64,000 nucleotides of DNA from Escherichia coli (GTDB lineage Bacteria > Pseudomonadota > Gammaproteobacteria > Enterobacterales > Enterobacteriaceae): NCBI RefSeq assembly GCF_016903815.1, contig NZ_CP069973.1, one strand, 5' to 3'. The notes below the pieces were generated by a model that saw only the letters and a program-made list of their open reading frames with translations, ran no database searches and was not told where the DNA came from. The position numbers and the translations under genes were made by a program. This document shows positions 6,052-54,368 of the stretch, in pieces. The stretch's first letter is position 1, and each line of letters begins with the position of its first letter.

Positions 6052-6523
6052 CACAACATCCGAGGGCAGCATTGTCCGCTAGTACACTGCAGTCCAGAAA
6101 GTCATGGGCGGACGTTGGGAGGAGGCGCTAATCCTTTCATACAAAAAATATGTAAAATCAATAACGGCTGTAAATCATTCAATACTCGCACTATCGGAAG
6201 TTCACCAGCCAGCCGCAGCACGTTCTTGCATACGACGTGTCTGCGGTTTCAACTTCACCAGTCCACCAATCACGATGGACAGTGCCAAGACAGCACTAGC
6301 AAAAACAGGAAATTAGCAGTCTCAGCAGAACACCGACCAGACGGTGAAGAAACAAAAAAGGATACGCAAAGGGGCCGCAGTTCCCGATTGATAAAAAAGC
6401 CAGCTTATGCGCTTTTTTTTCATGTATTATTAAGTATTGGTTAGCGTCTTTTTAATCAGAACTTTAAAGACAAGCCATTTGTAAGAAAACCGACAGATTC
6501 GGTTGACAAGCAGGAGTAATACT

Positions 6524-7318
6524 TTGGACATAAGAAAAGATTTGGAATCAGTAGCCCAATATATAAGTAGACTGTTATCGATAGGGTACGAATTTAGCCG
6601 TTTTGATAAAGACTGGGTCCATTTAAAAAATGAAGAGGATTTTCGTTTTATTTCAAGAATACCATTTGCAACACGGAATAAAGTGGAAGCAGTATATGCG
6701 GAAGGCAGAGATATGGCACTTTATATGTCTGATGAGTTACTATCCATTAATAGTGATTTCAGTAAATTTCCAACGTTGACAGCTATTATCGAAAGATTCA
6801 AGGACACTTGGGTTTATGGTAATTATGATTCGGAAGTGCCAAATATAGCTAAAAAAACATGCGAAGAAAATGCAGTTCAGCTTTGGTCTGTAGAACAGAT
6901 GTGTTCCTTATTCAAAAAGCAAGAACAACTATTAGCAGCAGTACGTATCACATTGCAGATGCTACAAGATAGTGACCTATACAAGATGGAGAATGGTTTA
7001 CCTCTTATGAAACAAGAAGCTAATATTCATGTCAGTGGAATTTCCGGTTCTAGTATCAATATACATTCTTCAGGTGCTACGGCAACTACTACGACAAATT
7101 ATAATGAGCCCACAATATTTAATGAAATGATTGAGGCAATAAAATCGAAAAACTTTGATGGCGCGACAGAATCACACCTTATAGATAATGTACAGGCACT
7201 GGCAGCCAGTCACCAAAGCGGCTGTTTTAAAGAAGCATATAAGGACTTTATTAATAATGTATCTGCACACATTACAGTATTTACTCCATTTCTTGCTGGC
7301 ATATCATCTTTACTATAA
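6524..7318 (+). CDS. Hypothetical protein (AT-rich cargo gene)
   Basis: ORF in clearly AT-rich DNA; probable TTG start at 6524 preceded by AGGAG, the track start at 6503 is also TTG; followed by hairpin gtgcccta-cca-tagggcac; no family recognised. Confidence 0.45.
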   Translation: MDIRKDLESVAQYISRLLSIGYEFSRFDKDWVHLKNEEDFRFISRIPFATRNKVEAVYAEGRDMALYMSDELLSINSDFSKFPTLTAIIERFKDTWVYGNYDSEVPNIAKKTCEENAVQLWSVEQMCSLFKKQEQLLAAVRITLQMLQDSDLYKMENGLPLMKQEANIHVSGISGSSINIHSSGATATTTTNYNEPTIFNEMIEAIKSKNFDGATESHLIDNVQALAASHQSGCFKEAYKDFINNVSAHITVFTPFLAGISSLL

Positions 7319-44300: not shown

Positions 44301-44717
44301 TGTTAACAATAGCCTGCTTCTCCGTGCCTTTCGGCACGTAAGAGGCTAACCTACATGTGTCTAGCATGAAATTGGCCTCAGATTAATGTTAAGCGTCTTG
44401 CAGGACGCGTAATGTTAACTGGGGCTTTTCTCTATCTGCCTTTGGTGTTCGTGCCCGAGGCAGATAGCCTCAAGCACCCGCCGTGATTCTACAAAAACAT
44501 TACCCACCTTTCCAGCAATTCACAACAACTCCATGCAAATAGTAAGTAGAATAATAAGTTATTAGTATTAGCAATTTACTTAGTTTCTAATTTGTGCCAA
44601 TGATTTTCATTTTTGCATGAAAAATACCTTAACATTTTATATTTACTTACTATTTGTAAGCCCCATCAGTTCTTTCTGATGGCGGCTGGTATTTCAGTTC
44701 CAGATATAGTATATGCT

Positions 44718-45746
44718 TTACGCCTTAATAGGGTTAATCACATTTCCGCTATCCGTACCATAGTATTTTTTTGTAGTCATGCCTTGTTTATAATAATCAT
44801 TTAACAGTTTGAGAAAGTTTCTTCCTTGCCTCTCATCTTCTATGACTAATTTACCATGCTCATTGGTCTTAAACTCTTCGTTCTGAAACATTTTTAGCAC
44901 ATCATTCATAGCTTGAACATCATTCTTTTCCAGAACCGTATGGTTACCTTTCTCAGCGATATGAGTGAGAATTTTTCTCAGTGATGGCTTATGAAGAATA
45001 GCTTGTTCAATAACATCTAAACCTTCAATAAGATCAAGTTCTTTAATTGTATTTAATGTTTTTTGTGCAGCTTCTGTAAACTCAACCTCCAAGCCTACAA
45101 TAGCCTCAAAACTTTTCTTATGAAATACATAAAATTGATCTTTTATATAAATACAATCGATTTTGTCATCAAAATTGACTGCGCTGCCATCAAATGATCT
45201 TAACTCTTTATCTGTTTTATCAAACAAAGCGAATACGCGCTGAGTCATATTTTGTGGTTCATTTGTTGTGACTTTCCCCCTGCTGATTTTTCGGAAAGAA
45301 TAAGTGACGTCAGCCCCCTTTTGGACTTTAATACAATAGGCCCACAAATCATTCTGAACCTCAGCAAGAGAGGTAAGTACAACTGGTTTATCATTCTTTA
45401 TATCGTTATTAATAACTTTTGAAAACGATATCGCGTTATTCATAGCATAGGCATAAATTTTATTATCAATATCATCATCAATAACAGTATGCTTTTTCAT
45501 CACAATATCATCTTTCGAAGCATGAGAAATAATCTGGTTTGATAAAGTATACTTAAAAAATTTAGCAATATCTGGAGCGATTGGAGCTTTAATGATTTTA
45601 AAATCGAATTTATCAACAACTCTTGCGGTTCTACTCATACCCGCTTTAAGATGTCTAGTAATGAAATACAACGATATTTTCGCCGCATCATCATCCTTAA
45701 GTTGCTCAGCATACTCTAATAATTCTTCAAGCTTTAACATTTTCAT
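44718..45746 (-). CDS. Soluble partner protein of candidate defense operon (KwaB-like by architecture, unverified)
   Basis: 342-aa Lys/Asp-rich AT-rich ORF; start overlaps the stop of the upstream membrane-protein gene (ATGA). Confidence 0.5.
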   Translation of the reverse strand: MKMLKLEELLEYAEQLKDDDAAKISLYFITRHLKAGMSRTARVVDKFDFKIIKAPIAPDIAKFFKYTLSNQIISHASKDDIVMKKHTVIDDDIDNKIYAYAMNNAISFSKVINNDIKNDKPVVLTSLAEVQNDLWAYCIKVQKGADVTYSFRKISRGKVTTNEPQNMTQRVFALFDKTDKELRSFDGSAVNFDDKIDCIYIKDQFYVFHKKSFEAIVGLEVEFTEAAQKTLNTIKELDLIEGLDVIEQAILHKPSLRKILTHIAEKGNHTVLEKNDVQAMNDVLKMFQNEEFKTNEHGKLVIEDERQGRNFLKLLNDYYKQGMTTKKYYGTDSGNVINPIKA

Positions 45747-46357
45747 TCCTTATGGGATTCAGCATAAAAAAGTTTTGGGCCCACGTCCTCAACATCAAGA
45801 AGATCATCTTCCTCCAAATACTTTGATTTAGTCAAAACCATACCAGTGCGTTTTTTGTCGCTTTCTAAATCCAAATATGTAACTTGATATAAAGTATAAT
45901 TAATACTTATTGTAGGATTTATAAGTATCATGCTTGAATTAATATATATTAAAGCCGTTACCGTTAACAATATTGCTATAGGTATAACATTAGTTAAAGT
46001 GGATAGATCCTGAAATACAAACGGAATTATATATGTAAAAAGATAGCTTATTGATTCATTGTTTTTATTTTCAATATCTATAACTCTTACAGTTCTACCA
46101 CTAGTGGCGCATCGACGTTTTATATTTTTTAAAAAAATTGTTAATCCTACAATACCAAATAATGATAATACACCAATGACACTGACCGCGCCAAAGTATT
46201 TAAAGAAAATAGTTAATGATTCAACACTTATACCTTTCCAATTTAAATAGCTTCTATAAGTATACAATTGCACAAAACACATGATAAAGAATAGGGGAAG
46301 GTATGACACTATAAATAGCGAAACTCTAGCACCTAAATGTAGTTTATTTACTCTCAT
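45743..46357 (-). CDS. Four-helix membrane protein of candidate defense operon (KwaA-like by architecture, unverified)
   Basis: 204-aa ORF with four hydrophobic stretches (about residues 12-32, 55-76, 103-115, 124-140) and an acidic C-terminal tail. Confidence 0.5.
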   Translation of the reverse strand: MRVNKLHLGARVSLFIVSYLPLFFIMCFVQLYTYRSYLNWKGISVESLTIFFKYFGAVSVIGVLSLFGIVGLTIFLKNIKRRCATSGRTVRVIDIENKNNESISYLFTYIIPFVFQDLSTLTNVIPIAILLTVTALIYINSSMILINPTISINYTLYQVTYLDLESDKKRTGMVLTKSKYLEEDDLLDVEDVGPKLFYAESHKE

Positions 46358-46565: not shown

Positions 46566-47252
46566 TCACTCCTTCTCTTCTTTATCGTAGTGGAGTTGAC
46601 CAATTTTGATAAGAGGGCGTCCCTGAGATTTGCGGTGTAGATTGGTATCGCGCAGAGAATACACACAGCCACAATATTCCTGCTGATAGAATTTTTCGCG
46701 CTTGCTGATTTCAATCATGCGGGACGAGCCGCCCTGCTTGCGCCAGTTATAATCCCAGTACACCATGCCCGGATAATGCGCGACGGCTCGCCGCCCACAG
46801 TCGTTAACCTGCTGCATATTTTTCCAGCGTGAAATGCCCAGTGAACTGCTGATCACACTGAAACCATTTTCAGCAGCGTACAGCGCTGTCCGCTCAAAAC
46901 GCATGTCAAAACACATGGTACAACGGATCCCCCTCTCGGGCTCCCATTCCATTCCTTTGGCACGTTCAAACCAGTTGTCTGTGTCGTAATCAGCATCAAT
47001 AAATGGCACGCCGTGTTGTTCAGCAAAGCGAATATTCTCATCCTTACGAATTAAATACTCTTTCTGAGGATGAATGTTCGGGTTGTAGAAAAAGATGGTA
47101 TAGTCGATTCTCGAGGCCTGAAGTGCCTCCATCACTTCACCGGAACATGGAGCACAGCAAGAGTGCAGTAGTAGTTTGTTTGCCCCGTTTGGGAGCTCCA
47201 ATTTAGGCCGTTTGAAATCAGCAATAGTCATAAATATTTTTATTGGGGTCAT
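46566..47252 (-). CDS. DUF208 / QueH-like protein (putative epoxyqueuosine reductase family)
   Basis: [11 protein letters not shown] and FFYNPNIHP motifs plus additional Cys (CTMC, CGC) as recalled for the QueH/DUF208 family. Confidence 0.6.
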
Positions 47253-47433: not shown

Positions 47434-47832
47434 TCACTGATAAAATGCCAGTATGCGCTGCATAACTTCGCTCTTCCGGCACTCACAGCAAATTATGTTT
47501 TGGTGCCTGTCATAACGACGTATTTCTCCGTCAGGTAATGACCAGATAAGGTCCGGATCAACCACAGATGTTTTCTTCACCTTTGCCCTCGAGAGTTTTT
47601 TGCGGGCGTTTTGCCAGTCCTTACGAGCCTGTTCAGACGGGAATAACCCGTAGCCAGAGTTATATACATCACCACTGGCAACCAGCTCTCTGGCGAGAAC
47701 GCTCATCAGATATCTTGTCGCACCTGTCTTGGCTTCCAGTTGCCGTAACGTCTCGCGCCCACTCCGGCGTACTAGCTCAACAACCTGCCCCTTGATTTTT
47801 TCCCGCTCTTCTTGTGTAAAAACTTTTGCCAC
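47434..47832 (-). CDS. Hypothetical prophage protein
   Basis: 132-aa basic ORF downstream of the replication initiator, with a CCEC motif; no family recognised. Confidence 0.4.
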   Translation of the reverse strand: MAKVFTQEEREKIKGQVVELVRRSGRETLRQLEAKTGATRYLMSVLARELVASGDVYNSGYGLFPSEQARKDWQNARKKLSRAKVKKTSVVDPDLIWSLPDGEIRRYDRHQNIICCECRKSEVMQRILAFYQ

Positions 47833-47872
47833 AAGTCCCCCTTAAAATTACCTCATGACCTGAAATCAAAAC

Positions 47873-48838
47873 TTATCCTCTGAAACCAGGCGGAATTTCT
47901 GTATCCGGTTCAGAAATATGATTAACACAACGCTGTACAGGTGAACGCCCCAGGCGGATGACCAGTTCGTCCCATTTTTCGCGGAGCTTTGACGGGCTCA
48001 TGATGTTTTTTACCCAGAATGGATCCCGCTGTACCCGACCAAACATTTCACAAATTTGTCTGTGACTTCTGCCATCCAGCATCCGCATTGTGCGCACATC
48101 ATTGGCCCAGACAGTCCAGTTAGGCTCTTTTGGTCGCATGATCTCGCCATCATCACTGGCGGCCTGTTCGTAGAGACCCACGATCCGCCCCCATATCCAC
48201 TGCGCACACGCCAGATCCTCCTGGCTACCCCACTGGCGTTTTTTCGCACTAAACACAACTGCGCCAGGGTGCCGGATTAAAAAATCCTGTTCAGCCGTCT
48301 GCGGGTCCGGTTGCGAAGCTTCCGGACGAAAAGTGTTTTTATTCTCTGTAGTAATCTCTGTTGTATTCTCTGTAGGATCATCGGGCCATTTTGACCCGAT
48401 GACATTGGGTCGTTTTGAACCAATGGAGCGTTTCATTTTGACCTCTTCCATCGTGTCATTTTGACCTGATGGAGCGGCGCATTTTGAACCGATGGATTCG
48501 CTCAATTTGCCATCATCTAAAAGCTCGCTCCCATAGTTAATCGTGTAGAAATTGGTCATATCGCGCTTTGATTTATTGAGCTTTTCACAACGCAAAAGCC
48601 CCAGCGTTTTCAGACTTGCAAACGCGCGCTTTAACGTTGACTCTGACCAGAATGGGAACTGTTCCAGCCATTGTTCCGTTGTGTTGTAAATCCAGCGAAC
48701 ACCATCACATTCCATGCCGGAATTGGTATCTCTCAACCAGTAATGCAACTGCTGCAACACAATGGCTTCATTTAAGCCAATCTTCATCGCAAGCTGTGTG
48801 TTTATAACCAGTGGGCGTTCAGCAAAAAGAAGGCTCAT
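47873..48838 (-). CDS. Replication initiator (lambda O-like replisome organizer) containing ori iterons
   Basis: N-terminal replisome-organizer-like region; internal 23-bp iterons encode repeated SIGSK motifs; start uncertain (48892 or 48838). Confidence 0.65.
   Translation of the reverse strand: MSLLFAERPLVINTQLAMKIGLNEAIVLQQLHYWLRDTNSGMECDGVRWIYNTTEQWLEQFPFWSESTLKRAFASLKTLGLLRCEKLNKSKRDMTNFYTINYGSELLDDGKLSESIGSKCAAPSGQNDTMEEVKMKRSIGSKRPNVIGSKWPDDPTENTTEITTENKNTFRPEASQPDPQTAEQDFLIRHPGAVVFSAKKRQWGSQEDLACAQWIWGRIVGLYEQAASDDGEIMRPKEPNWTVWANDVRTMRMLDGRSHRQICEMFGRVQRDPFWVKNIMSPSKLREKWDELVIRLGRSPVQRCVNHISEPDTEIPPGFRG
48385..48500. repeat. Origin iterons: five direct repeats at 23-bp spacing
   Basis: Core (a/g)ttttga(c/a)c at 48388, 48412, 48435, 48458 and 48481, inside the initiator gene as in lambda ori. 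Confidence 0.65.
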
Positions 48839-49340
48839 AATTCCATCCAGCTTTTTGTTGGTATTGCTGTCGATACGCAAGCTTGAAAGCAATTGCTTTT
48901 TCTATAAGTTCGTCAGTTTCACGATCCACTACGGCAGGATCAGCAAAAAGCAGTCCGGACTCCACCACATCGCCATATTCTTTGTTTAACCCGGCGATCA
49001 TGCACGTGATGCTTTTTCCGTCAGTAATTTCACGATACAACCTGAAATCACTAATCCGGATAGCCTCCATAATCGCAGGCACTAGCGCCGTGAACTTTTC
49101 ACGCTTATCCCTGGTGTCGATAGCCTTCCAGCGTTCGAATATCTTCACTCGATTAACGCCAAGCGCTCGCTGATCAACCGCGCCACCTTCATCTGTGACA
49201 CGCTGAACATCGATGTTCGGGCGCTCTTTCAAAGCCCAGAATGCTTCAGTGATTAATATCGTCGCCTGCTCCTGTGTCATTCCTGGTCGACATATCCAGG
49301 CATCCAGAGCCTCACGAGCCTGTTCAGGAGTGATTTTCAT
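48819..49340 (-). CDS. Hypothetical early-region protein (YdaT-position)
   Basis: 173-aa ORF directly downstream of the cro-like dicC. Confidence 0.45.
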   Translation of the reverse strand: MKITPEQAREALDAWICRPGMTQEQATILITEAFWALKERPNIDVQRVTDEGGAVDQRALGVNRVKIFERWKAIDTRDKREKFTALVPAIMEAIRISDFRLYREITDGKSITCMIAGLNKEYGDVVESGLLFADPAVVDRETDELIEKAIAFKLAYRQQYQQKAGWNYEPSFC

Positions 49341-49554
49341 TGTTCAACCGCCCCGCCCGCTTCGTCTTACGATATTCATCATAAACTTTGGGATCATACT
49401 GAAGCTCCCCGCCAGATGCCTCCTGTAGACGCATCGCGCGACCTTCAGGAACCAGTATCCCCCAAGCAGCAACACTTGCCAGCCTCACTCCTGCGGCATT
49501 GGCAAGCTTTGTTTTGCTGCCAAAAAAAGTAATTGCGTCAACTTTAAGCATCAA
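49324..49554 (-). CDS. dicC: Cro-like repressor DicC
   Basis: 76-aa ORF ...FFGSKTKLANAAGVRLASVAAW...LVPEGRAMRLQEASGGELQYDPKVYDEY...; divergent from dicA. Confidence 0.85.
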   Translation of the reverse strand: MMLKVDAITFFGSKTKLANAAGVRLASVAAWGILVPEGRAMRLQEASGGELQYDPKVYDEYRKTKRAGRLNNENHS

Positions 49555-49631: not shown

Positions 49632-50039
49632 ATGGATACAAGAACCCTGGGCCAGCGAGTTCTGGCGCGACGAAAAGAATTACGCTTAACACAACGAGAA
49701 GCCGCGCGCCTCGCTGGAGTTGCTCACGTCACAATTTCACAATGGGAAAGAGACGAAACCCAGCCAGTCGGAAAACGATTGTTTGCTTTAGCGGATGCTC
49801 TGAAGTGCTCACCTACATGGCTAATGTTTGGTGACGAAGACAAGGCACCAGTGCCTGCACAAGAACTTCATGTGGAAACAGAGCTAACTCCCAACCACAA
49901 AGAATTGATCGAATTATTCGATGCTCTTCCATCTTCCGAGCAGGAAGCCTTGCTGTCTGAAATGCGCGCAAGAGTAGAAAACTTCAACAAACTCTTCGAA
50001 GAAATGCTTAAAGCGCGTAAAAATAAATCAATAAAATAA
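49632..50039 (+). CDS. dicA: HTH-XRE repressor DicA
   Basis: 135-aa ORF ...LTQREAARLAGVAHVTISQWERDETQPVGKRLFALADALKCSPTWLMFGDED... Confidence 0.9.
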   Translation: MDTRTLGQRVLARRKELRLTQREAARLAGVAHVTISQWERDETQPVGKRLFALADALKCSPTWLMFGDEDKAPVPAQELHVETELTPNHKELIELFDALPSSEQEALLSEMRARVENFNKLFEEMLKARKNKSIK

Positions 50040-51198: not shown

Positions 51199-51256
51199 TT
51201 TTCTGGTGACGTTTGGCGGTATCAGTTTTACTCCGTGACTGCTCTGCCGCCGTTTT
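51199..51256 (+). ncRNA. dicF: DicF small regulatory RNA
   Basis: tttctggtgacgtttggcggtatcagttttactccgtgactgctctgccgcc followed by a T-run; matches the DicF sequence from memory. Confidence 0.8.
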
Positions 51257-51896: not shown

Positions 51897-54368
51897 ATGA
51901 GTAAAGTCTTTATTTGCGCCGCTATTCCTGACGAACTGGCAACAAGGGAAGAAGGCGCTGTGGCTGTAGCCACAGCCATTGAAGCTGGCGACGAACGCCG
52001 TGCTCGAGCAAAATTTCACTGGCAATTCCTGGAACATTATCCGGCTGCTCAGGACTGCGTTTATAAATTTATTGTCTGCGAGGATAAACCTGGCATACCC
52101 CGCCCTGCCCTCGATTCATGGGATGCTGAATATATGCAGGAAAACCGCTGGGATGAGGAGTCTGCTTCTTTTGTCCCGGTTGAGACTGAATCCGATCCGA
52201 TGAACGTCACTTTTGACAAGCTGGCCCCTGAAGTACAGAACGCTGTCATGGTTAAGTTCGACACATGTGAAAACATCACCGTTGATATGGTTATTAGCGC
52301 ACAGGAATTGTTGCAGGAAGACATGGCAACATTCGACGGACATATCGTTGAAGCGTTGATGAAAATGCCAGAAGTTAACGCCATGTATCCGGAGCTTAAG
52401 TTGCACGCCATTGGGTGGGTTAAGCATAAATGTATTCCTGGTGCTAAATGGCCCGAAATTCAGGCAGAGATGCGCATCTGGAAAAAACGTCGCGAAGGTG
52501 AACGCAAGGAAACCGGAAAATACACGTCTGTTGTTGATCTCGCCCGCGCCAGAGCCAATCAACAGTACACTGAAAATTCAACAGGAAAAATCAGCCCGGT
52601 CATTGCTGCCATTCATCGCGAATACAAGCAGACATGGAAAACACTGGATGACGAACTGGCCTACGCTCTCTGGCCTGGTGATGTGGATGCCGGAAACATT
52701 GACGGCAGCATCCATCGCTGGGCAAAAAATGAAGTTATCGATAACGACCGCGAAGACTGGAAGCGTATCTCGGCATCAATGCGCAAACAGCCTGATGCCC
52801 TTCGCTACGACCGCCAAACTATTTTTGGCCTTGTCCGTGAACGTCCGATCGACATTCACAAAGATCCCGTAGCACTGAACAAATATATCTGCGAATACCT
52901 GACGACAAAGGGCGTGTTTGAGAATGAAGAAACAGACCTGGGCACTGTTGATGTTCTCCAGTCATCAGAAACACAAACTGATGCAGTGGAAACTGAGGTA
53001 TCTGATATCCCAAAAAATGAAACCGCGCCGGAAGCTGAACCATCTGTAGAGCGTGAGGGGCCGTTCTATTTCCTCTTCGCAGATAAGGACGGAGAAAAAT
53101 ACGGTCGCGCAAACAAACTTTCTGGTCTGGATAAGGCACTGGCTGCTGGCGCCACTGAAATCACAAAAGAAGAATATTTTGCCCGAAAAAATGGCACATA
53201 CACGGGCTTACCGCAAAATGTAGATACCGCTGAAGATTCAGAACAACCAGAGCCGATGAAAGTTACCGCTGACGAAGTAAACAACATTATGCAGGCAGCC
53301 AATATCATCCAGCCTGACGCCGATAAGTTGCTTGCTGCATCACGTGGTGAATTTGTTGAAGGGATTAGTGACCCGAATGATCCGAAATGGGTTAAGGGGA
53401 TCCAGACCCGCGATTCTGTGAACCAGAACCAGCATGAATCGGAACGGAACTACCAAAAAGCGGAACAAAACAGCCCAAATGCGTTACAAAACGAGCCAGA
53501 AACGAAACAGCCTGAATCAGTGGCGCAACAGGAAGTGGAAAAAGTCTGCACCGCCTGCGGTCAGACCGGCGGCGGCAACTGCCCTGATTGTGGCGCGGTA
53601 ATGGGCGACGCAACATACCAGGAAACATTCGATGAAGAGTATCAGGTTGAAGTTCAGGAAGATGATCCGGAGAAAATGGAAGGCGCTGAACATCCACACA
53701 AGGAGAACACTGGCGGCAATCAGCATCACGATAGCGATAATGAAACTGGCGAGACGGCAGATCACTCAATTAAGGTGAACGGTCATCACGAAATCACATC
53801 CACCAGCAGGACGTGTGACCATCTAATGATCGACCTTGAAACCATGGGAAAAAATCCTGATGCCCCGATCATCTCAATAGGTGCAATATTTTTCGATCCG
53901 CAAACCGGAGATATGGGACCGGAATTTAGTAAGACTATCGATCTGGAAACTGCTGGCGGAGTCATTGATCGGGACACCATTAAATGGTGGCTTAAGCAAT
54001 CACGCGAAGCGCAATCTGCCATTATGACCGATGAAATCCCGTTAGATGATGCACTGTTACAATTGCGGGAATTTATCGACGAAAACTCCGGTGAATTTTT
54101 TGTTCAGGTCTGGGGAAATGGAGCCAACTTCGACAACACGATTTTGCGCCGTTCATACGAACGGCAGGGGATCCCCTGCCCGTGGCGTTACTACAACGAT
54201 CGCGATGTACGCACAATCGTTGAGCTGGGGAAAGCCATAGACTTCGATGCCAGAACGGCTATTCAATTCGAAGGTGAGCGCCATAATGCACTTGATGACG
54301 CCCGTTACCAGGCAAAATACGTTTCAGTTATCTGGCAAAAACTGATCCCGAGTCAGGCTGATTCTTAA
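51897..54368 (+). CDS. Prophage exonuclease-family protein (YdfE-like N-terminus, DnaQ-like 3'-5' exonuclease C-terminal domain)
   Basis: 823-aa ORF; C-terminal DLETMG...[13 protein letters not shown] resembles the DEDDh exonuclease fold; acidic low-complexity middle region. Confidence 0.65.

Follow-up and report, generated by a model that had tools for sequence, protein, structure and literature searches.

A replication module without a helicase loader is present in a lambdoid prophage carried by the 64,000-nucleotide stretch of Escherichia coli DNA analyzed here (contig NZ_CP069973.1 of RefSeq assembly GCF_016903815.1; hereafter the window). The module is of the initiator-only type and encodes no DnaC-, P-, or DnaB-like protein, a state that is shared by complete genomes of isolated phages. 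Its initiator gene is flanked by the genes for a YdaT-type regulator and a Ren-like protein, and we consider it probable that host DnaB-DnaC is recruited through the C-terminal region of the initiator. The locus belongs to an E. coli lambdoid prophage of the Qin/Rac type and constitutes its early-right operon. In order, the operon contains the gene for Cro-like DicC, the YdaT-type analogue of CII (173 aa), the O-type initiator with its internal origin, the Ren-like DUF977 protein (132 aa), and the accessory QueH and Kiwa genes.

The two open reading frames (ORFs) on which the original prediction had centered are real genes. They are situated on the minus strand at 48819..49340 (173 aa, ATG start) and 47434..47832 (132 aa, GTG start), with matching RefSeq coordinates in NZ_CP023820.1, and the gene order of the window agrees with the statement that they flank the initiator gene. 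Their RefSeq names in NZ_CP023820.1 are "toxin YdaT family protein" (WP_000705355) and "DUF977 family protein" (WP_001151242). The window region shows 100% identity to a prophage that E. coli strain 7/2, like many further human isolates, carries at the Qin locus, beside rspB. Of 5426 complete E. coli genomes, 4613 have a match to the 2.8-kb stretch around both ORFs, and 522 cover 80% or more of this stretch. This module region is 100% conserved in many genomes, and every ORF of the module is intact.

The absence of an evident lambda P or DnaC-like loader, as originally claimed, is borne out by several searches. When E. coli DnaC, Rac YdaV, lambda P, and DnaT were compared with the whole window by tblastn, no match was obtained at E ≤ 1e-5, and no fragment of DnaC was detectable; the sole match in the same search was that of lambda O to the initiator. 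Helicase, loader, and primase are all absent from the RefSeq annotation of the whole prophage. A Walker A scan of the window ORFs returned only SitB and one spurious antisense ORF, so that neither flanking protein has this motif. Neither of them matches PF01695 (DnaC/IstB AAA+) or PF06992 (lambda P) in Pfam, and searches of NCBIfam and PHROG also gave no DnaC-type match.

The same configuration is found in isolated phages. HannyBb (from faeces; isolated on E. coli), mEp460_ev081, and PhiR42_1 have the same set of four genes, 95–96% identical (96% for HannyBb), and in Tritos and 606R7 a different initiator gene has DUF977 directly after it. The complete HannyBb genome (45,272 bp, 90 coding sequences) has no annotated helicase, loader, or primase, tblastn with DnaC, YdaV, and P is negative, and the only P-loop (Walker A) protein encoded is the terminase. 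Because the loader-less order also occurs in isolated phages, it is no private defect of the window prophage.

The 173-aa protein is a YdaT/CII-type transcription regulator of the lysis-lysogeny switch and not a replication protein. It matches phrog_163, "CII-like transcriptional activator," over residues 1–155 (E = 2.6e-40) and scores 23.9 bits against PF06254 (YdaT), above the curated cut-off of 21. Comparison by hhalign with aligned YdaT sequences of Rac and the related loci gives a probability of 96% (E = 3.9e-9) over residues 1–94, which correspond to the DNA-binding domain (residues 1–96) of YdaT from prophage CP-933P (PMC9986795). YdaT has been described as a functional equivalent of lambda CII (PMC9986795, PMC8630535), and relatives of YdaT have been found experimentally to be DNA-binding regulators (PMC9986795). 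In 68 related phage loci, the gene situated between the cro-like gene and the initiator encodes YdaT, in either a 141-aa form or the 173-aa variant.

The YdaT protein of CP-933P (Protein Data Bank code 8BT1; PMC9986795) belongs to the same family and occupies the same genomic slot as the 173-aa protein, and the alignment spans its POU-type DNA-binding domain. The two differ in that the 173-aa protein has a longer C-terminal half and a weak pairwise similarity to 8bt1 (E = 0.07); its sequence matches in the Protein Data Bank, to the YdaT structures 3c4r and 8bt1, are weak. CP-933P YdaT binds as a tetramer to the inverted-repeat operator TTGATTN6AATCAA (PMC9986795). In the window this operator is present at chance level (4 sites with two mismatches as against 4.8 expected), with 0 sites in the immunity region, and the DNA target of the 173-aa protein is therefore probably unlike that of CP-933P YdaT. 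The annotation "toxin YdaT" is misleading for these phage genes, and PADLOC gave no defence-system match for either the 173-aa or the 132-aa protein.

The 132-aa protein is a predicted small winged-helix protein of the DUF977/Ren-like type that closes the replication cluster. It matches PF06163 (DUF977) over its full length, residues 1–132 (E = 8.1e-29), and phrog_142, "Ren-like exclusion protein" (E = 4.4e-44). In the AlphaFold2 model, residues 1–86 have a predicted local distance difference test score (pLDDT) above 90 and form a winged helix followed by a long helix, and the closest solved folds are DNA-binding domains of the GntR/MarR type. The alignment underlying this model is shallow and residues 87–113 are unreliable, because the homologue search gave close relatives only (at least 91% identity). 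The protein is collinear with lambda Ren, each having an N-terminal helix-turn-helix region and a C-terminal motif, although overall identity is only ~24%. The common motif is N-(I/L)-(I/V)-x-x-E-C-R-x-S-x-x-M-x-R-(I/V)-L-A-x-Y, with 50% identity over 20 residues (E = 1e-5). A homologue search with lambda Ren yielded a narrow family of 155 proteins, from which DUF977 was not reached via the word index; the Ren link therefore rests on PHROG clustering (phrog_142), the collinear alignment, and the C-terminal motif.

The position of the gene is also that of ren, which follows the replication genes in lambda. The product of lambda ren allows escape from Rex exclusion, and no rexAB genes were seen in the window. 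Searches of Pfam, NCBIfam, PHROG, and PADLOC and the AlphaFold2 fold revealed no ATPase motif in the 132-aa protein and no similarity to DnaC, P, DciA, DnaD, or defence families. In related loci DUF977 is found downstream of the replication genes whether or not these include a DnaC-like loader, and it is therefore no loader substitute. The window protein ends in ...AFYQ (47434–47460), and most of its relatives are 140–141 aa long with 8–9 extra C-terminal residues. The start codon of DUF977 (47830–47832 in the window) is GTG in the loader-less loci examined and ATG when the gene comes after DUF1627.

Since each of the two proteins falls in a named family by its Pfam and PHROG matches, the description of both as unassigned no longer holds. 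The suggestion that one of them serves as the loader is not supported either, one being a YdaT/CII-type regulator and the other DUF977/Ren-like without an ATPase motif. Homology of the flanking ORFs to non-replication families, which had been named in advance as the outcome that would speak against a loader, is what was found.

The initiator gene itself lies at 47873..48838 on the minus strand. The mechanical ORF extends from 47873 to 48892, and the likely start is the ATG at 48838, giving a protein of 321 aa (966 nucleotides; WP_000054487) that RefSeq labels "hypothetical protein." It matches phrog_391, "replication initiation O-like" (E = 3.5e-92). The protein consists of a predicted N-terminal winged-helix origin-binding domain (residues 1–110), an origin-encoded linker, a lambda-O-like C-terminal domain (residues ~147–294), and a DnaT-like tail. 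Residues 147–294 are 34% identical to residues 135–270 of lambda O (E = 3e-27). The N-terminal domain is modeled by AlphaFold2 as a winged helix with pLDDT above 90, its best folds in the Protein Data Bank being the N-terminal domains of plasmid initiators (4PQL, 4PT7, and 5KBJ), and it has no match to PF04492 in Pfam. Foldseek returned matches for the N-terminal domain only; the C-terminal domain, with pLDDT of 50–80, gave nothing usable. The homologue search for the initiator recovered close relatives only (at least 68% identity).

The origin iterons are contained within the initiator gene at 48379..48517, as repeat families with 23–24-bp spacing. The tandem 23-bp units share the core GGTCAAAATG, which has inverted symmetry, and encode the repeated peptide (S/V)IGSK. 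Their consensus CATCGGNNCAAAATGNCCCGATG is found at 4 sites with at most 3 mismatches, where 0 are expected. A repeated A+T-rich stretch of TACAGAGAAT-type units adjoins the iterons (48335..48378) and is the presumed unwinding region. The order of iterons followed by an A+T-rich stretch inside the initiator gene is that of the lambda origin, according to the lambda annotation. Taken with the O-like families and the domains, this arrangement identifies the gene as that of a genuine O-type initiator, the origin being contained in the part that codes for the linker. A lambda-O-type initiator has its cognate P encoded directly downstream, whereas here the next gene is DUF977 and P is nowhere in the window. 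The central gene is O-like at the origin, yet of a sub-kind without P. Translation of the A+T-rich stretch gives a peptide repeat of the TENTTE type, whose copy number varies between otherwise near-identical initiators (321 aa here, 329 aa at L009:3971–4960), so that the presumed unwinding region is polymorphic in length.

The final 20 codons of the initiator gene (47876..47935, minus strand) encode the tail QRCVNHISEPDTEIPPGFRG. It is identical in 14 of 20 positions to residues 160–179 of host DnaT (pairwise E = 1e-7), has the DnaT tail pattern ...VSEPDxxIPPGFRG, and also matches the DnaT family of NCBIfam and the DnaT chains of 2ru8, 6aep, and 9zbt in the Protein Data Bank. With a pLDDT of 30–40 in the AlphaFold2 model, the tail is predicted to be disordered. 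The sequence IPPGFRG is invariant across related loci, where 17 codon variants were seen that are all synonymous; this constancy despite synonymous variants points to the peptide, and not the DNA, as the target of selection. The three-helix single-stranded DNA-binding domain of DnaT (PF17948) has no match in the initiator, whereas DnaT itself matches it with E = 3.7e-21. A remote relationship between the O-like C-terminal domain and a DnaT domain was considered and rejected, as hhalign (16 residues) and a profile search of the Protein Data Bank aligned the tail only. The label "Primosomal protein I," which some phage records give to the initiator, is a misleading over-annotation.

Related loci were compared using 80 viral contigs encoding DUF977, which provided 67 loci with enough upstream sequence; because the prophage sequences are redundant, the counts represent the presence or absence of configurations and not frequencies. 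The order of the module in these loci is cro, YdaT, initiator, an optional DnaC paralogue and DUF1627, and DUF977. A tail-bearing initiator is present in 59 of the 67 loci. It is followed by a DnaC-like gene in 40 of the 59, and the remaining 19 are without one, the next gene being DUF977 in 15 and DUF1627 in 4. Identical initiator types were seen both with and without the DnaC-like gene. At the loader-less junction, a conserved spacer of 40 nucleotides supplies DUF977 with a ribosome-binding site and leads to its GTG start; this junction is common to three initiator types (L008, L016, and L070). This signature junction of the loader-less configuration is situated at 47833..47872 in the window, where a Shine-Dalgarno-like AGGGGG lies ahead of the GTG. 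In the loader-containing junction, the stop codon of the tail is separated by 6–8 nucleotides from the ATG of the DnaC-like gene; in the host, dnaC begins just past the stop codon of dnaT.

A scan of viral contigs for the back-translated tail identified 79 tail-bearing proteins in 13 clusters. The tail occurs on at least six unrelated scaffolds, including O-like, DUF1376/YdaU-like, and replisome-organiser-like proteins. A DnaC-like gene comes next in 37 cases and lambda P in none; in 28 cases the next gene is of neither kind, being DUF977 in 19 of them. A simple rule by which the tail means that no loader follows was rejected, since the tail is equally present before a DnaC paralogue. In a further comparison, diverse initiators sharing the O-like C-terminal domain were examined for the type of tip and the identity of the next gene. 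Among those with GFRG tips, P0129 is followed by a DnaC-like gene and P0131, P0134, and P0252 by no loader. Where the tip is of the lambda type, D-W-x-x-T-x-W (P0136, P0261, and P0212), lambda P (PF06992) comes next in 3 of 3 examined, as in lambda. The kind of loader tracks the extreme C terminus and not the preceding domain.

Two other kinds of C-terminal end were seen in the related loci. A third, acidic tip, ...FEALDCxDWRDD, is found in L026:2711–3727, L030:2613–3737, and L052:2612–3736; these loci have no DnaC-like gene, and ~480 nucleotides without an ORF of at least 80 aa lie ahead of DUF1627. In the phage initiator L099 (~6180–7003, plus strand, a 274-aa ORF ending at 7003; IMG/VR 2770939623_000004), and also in L116, the C-terminal 94 residues are 64% identical to residues 86–179 of DnaT (E = 1e-41). 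The DnaT-like domain of L099 is placed behind a phage-type N-terminal domain. This similarity suggests that host DnaT and the L099-type initiators are of recent common origin.

In the mechanism that we propose, the N-terminal winged helix of the initiator would bind the 23-bp iterons and open the adjoining A+T-rich stretch. The C-terminal region would then bring in the host DnaB-DnaC complex directly, and the flexible 20-residue DnaT-like tail would be the most likely contact element. In relatives with a DnaC paralogue directly after the tail codons, the paralogue would replace host DnaC in an arrangement that mirrors the host dnaT-dnaC operon. The other alternative of the original prediction, that the initiator recruits host DnaC directly, is the best-supported reading, given the isolated phages without a loader, the optional nature of the DnaC-like gene, and the DnaT tail; its delivery step, in which the initiator hands on host DnaB-DnaC with the tail as contact, we infer from sequence comparison. 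A wider reading joins these points and is offered tentatively, as possible though somewhat short of probable. The tail, R-x-V-N-x-(I/V)-S-x-P-D-x-x-I-P-P-G-F-R-G, would be a portable docking motif for a DnaC-type loader in complex with DnaB, through which initiators could rely on host DnaC or on a phage DnaC paralogue, so that the phage loader becomes dispensable. Grafted onto many unrelated origin-binding scaffolds of phages, the motif would act in the same way in each. Host DnaT would be a domesticated C-terminal fragment of a phage initiator that is still paired with DnaC, and the tail would be its contact to DnaB-DnaC.

Several points weigh against recruitment of DnaB-DnaC through the tail. 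The C-terminal domain of lambda O binds P, and the homologous domain here has no P to bind. The tail is unchanged in modules with their own DnaC paralogue and is therefore not specific to the loader-less state. The counts from viral contigs (IMG/VR) do not represent independent events, being drawn from E. coli prophages with high redundancy, and the window prophage, with several insertion sequence (IS) elements, may itself be unable to replicate. No mention of the tail motif or of a function of DnaT residues 154–179 was found in the literature searched. A cryo-electron microscopy (cryo-EM) paper of 2026 on the preprimosome places the C-terminal domain of DnaT on PriA and speculates that its N-terminal domain, not the tail, recruits DnaB-DnaC. 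The tail may be an element related to PriA or to single-stranded DNA.

Because the 2026 structures contain the C-terminal domain of DnaT on PriA, a PriA-directed role of the tail is a serious rival, even if we judge it unlikely. By mimicry of DnaT, the tail would dock the initiator onto host PriA (or PriA-PriB), and the PriA-dependent restart primosome would load DnaB at the opened origin. The cryo-EM structures show the C-terminal region of DnaT docking to PriA via a conserved hydrophobic interface, and the tail has a hydrophobic core, IPPGF; this region is also reported to be the most conserved part of DnaT, and within the initiator the resemblance to DnaT is greatest in the tail. However, the text of the DnaT papers does not ascribe the PriA interface to residues 160–179, and what accompanies the tail in phage genomes is a gene for a DnaC paralogue and not a PriA-like gene. 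The PriA route is also longer, as host DnaT would still be needed.

The recurrence of the loader-less order in HannyBb, mEp460_ev081, PhiR42_1, Tritos, and 606R7 bears on a different explanation, by which the loader gene was lost in a deletion, the replication functions of the prophage are dead, and there is no mechanism to explain. The prophage does carry IS1, IS200, IS66, and ISNCY elements and is situated at Qin, a locus that in K-12 is defective, related modules have a cassette of DnaC-like and DUF1627 genes between the initiator and DUF977, and a truncated DnaC-like gene in one locus (L156) would fit such a loss. A remnant of this kind is nevertheless improbable, since three initiator types share the same conserved spacer, complete with ribosome-binding site and GTG, and the window has no detectable DnaC fragment, intact module ORFs, and a region that is fully conserved in many genomes. 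It is more doubtful still that DUF977, or with less likelihood the YdaT-like protein, is an unconventional adaptor coupling the initiator to DnaB. DUF977/Ren does always end the replication gene cluster (O-P-ren in lambda, initiator-DUF977 here), and lambda Ren and DUF977 have the conserved C-terminal motif in common. Yet DUF977 co-occurs with DnaC-like loaders in about two-thirds of the related modules, as its counterpart does with P in lambda, so nothing is replaced, and the loader-less, tail-bearing initiators P0131 and P0134 have no DUF977 adjoining them. The predicted winged helix has no ATPase fold and no similarity to known loaders or adaptors (DnaC, P, DciA, and DnaD), PHROGs assigns DUF977 to the host-takeover/exclusion category, and the experimental record of the YdaT relatives is that of DNA-binding regulators (PMC9986795).

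Among lambdoid replication modules, the one described here is unremarkable; it belongs to the Rac/Qin-type family and also to the recognised initiator-only class. It resembles the lambda cro-cII-O-P-ren region in gene order and logic, with an origin inside the initiator gene, an initiator C-terminal domain 34% identical to that of lambda O, and a Ren homologue in last position. It differs from lambda in having no P, in the N-terminal domain of the initiator, which is of another winged-helix type, and in the cII slot, which contains an unrelated regulator of the YdaT type. The tips also differ, that of the window initiator being DnaT-like and ending in ...IPPGFRG and that of lambda O being ...DLTNTDWIYGVDL. 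The Rac genes ydaS-ydaT-ydaU-ydaV-ydaW of E. coli K-12 and their phage relatives belong to the same module family, with genes for a Cro-like protein, YdaT, and an initiator whose C terminus is ...IPPGFRG (the tail is present in YdaU), and with DUF977 last in complete versions. In Rac-type modules the initiator is separated from DUF977 by YdaV, a DnaC paralogue, and DUF1627, and the window has neither of these two. The window YdaT is the rarer 173-aa variant, and the scaffold of its initiator is O-like and not YdaU/DUF1376. In comparison with the dnaT-dnaC operon of E. coli, the last 20 residues of DnaT are near-identical to the tail (14/20), and the phage DnaC-type gene follows the tail codons as dnaC follows dnaT; the window initiator lacks the PF17948 DNA-binding domain, the N-terminal domain, and the acidic linker of DnaT.

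Phage replication modules that are initiator-only ("initiator-solo") were reportedly classified as such by Weigel and Seitz in 2006. Modules of this class have an initiator and an origin without a helicase or loader and must recruit the host machinery, and the window module differs from them in nothing essential. That an O-like protein can carry a C-terminal motif of DnaT has already been noted for DopC, of the DopC/DopE pair of Cellvibrionales and Oceanospirillales (Brezellec et al. 2017, PMC5509034). DopC is encoded by a domesticated chromosomal gene that is paired with the P-like DopE and has no iterons, whereas phage tail-bearing initiators are never paired with P in the loci examined.

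Several other features of the prophage lie outside the replication genes. The gene for the DicC/Cro-like regulator (76 aa; 49324..49554, minus strand; NF007282 DicC, E = 1.9e-49; PF14549 P22_Cro, E = 5e-12) is the first of the operon and overlaps the 173-aa gene by 17 nucleotides. Divergent from the operon is a gene for a DicA-type immunity repressor of 135 aa (49632..50039, plus strand; NCBIfam NF007257 DicA, E = 2.7e-67; Pfam HTH_3). The DicF antisense small RNA (RF00039, 72.5 bits) is located at 51201–51252 on the plus strand, in the early-left operon upstream of dicB/ydfD, and fits a Qin-type prophage. Directly after DUF977 is a homologue of QueH (epoxyqueuosine reductase; 46566–47252, minus strand; PF02677, E = 3.4e-65; phrog_3217). 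It occupies the spot of nin-region genes in other phages, and a lone enzyme of the queuosine pathway is unusual for a prophage. A complete Kiwa anti-phage system is encoded just downstream of the replication module at 44718–46357 on the minus strand, with KwaA at 45743–46357 (PADLOC, E = 1.3e-101) and KwaB at 44718–45746 (PADLOC, E = 5.1e-158; Pfam KwaB, E = 2.4e-16). Kiwa is not present at the corresponding place of HannyBb and mEp460_ev081. An Rfam match to the sok antitoxin RNA (RF01794, 105.6 bits; 44308–44479, minus strand) is situated between the ISNCY transposase gene and kwaB, away from the annotated hokD of the prophage, which lies elsewhere. An 823-aa "exonuclease" (51897–54368, plus strand), conserved in HannyBb and mEp460_ev081, has a family match for residues 642–813 alone (Rv2179c-like 3'-5' exoribonuclease, E = 3.1e-67); its N-terminal 640 residues are long and acidic, contain a CxxC...CxxC stretch, and match no family.

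For the observation of the two ORFs little changes, as both belong to described families and the module is found in sequenced phages and in the 522 complete E. coli genomes mentioned above. The correlation between tail and loader is a modest new lead, and what the present analysis adds is the DnaT-like tail as a possible recruiting element. The literature on replication restart still lists the connection of DnaT to DnaB-DnaC as unknown. The tail is a testable candidate for this link, and equally for the means by which loader-less phages may capture the helicase from their host.

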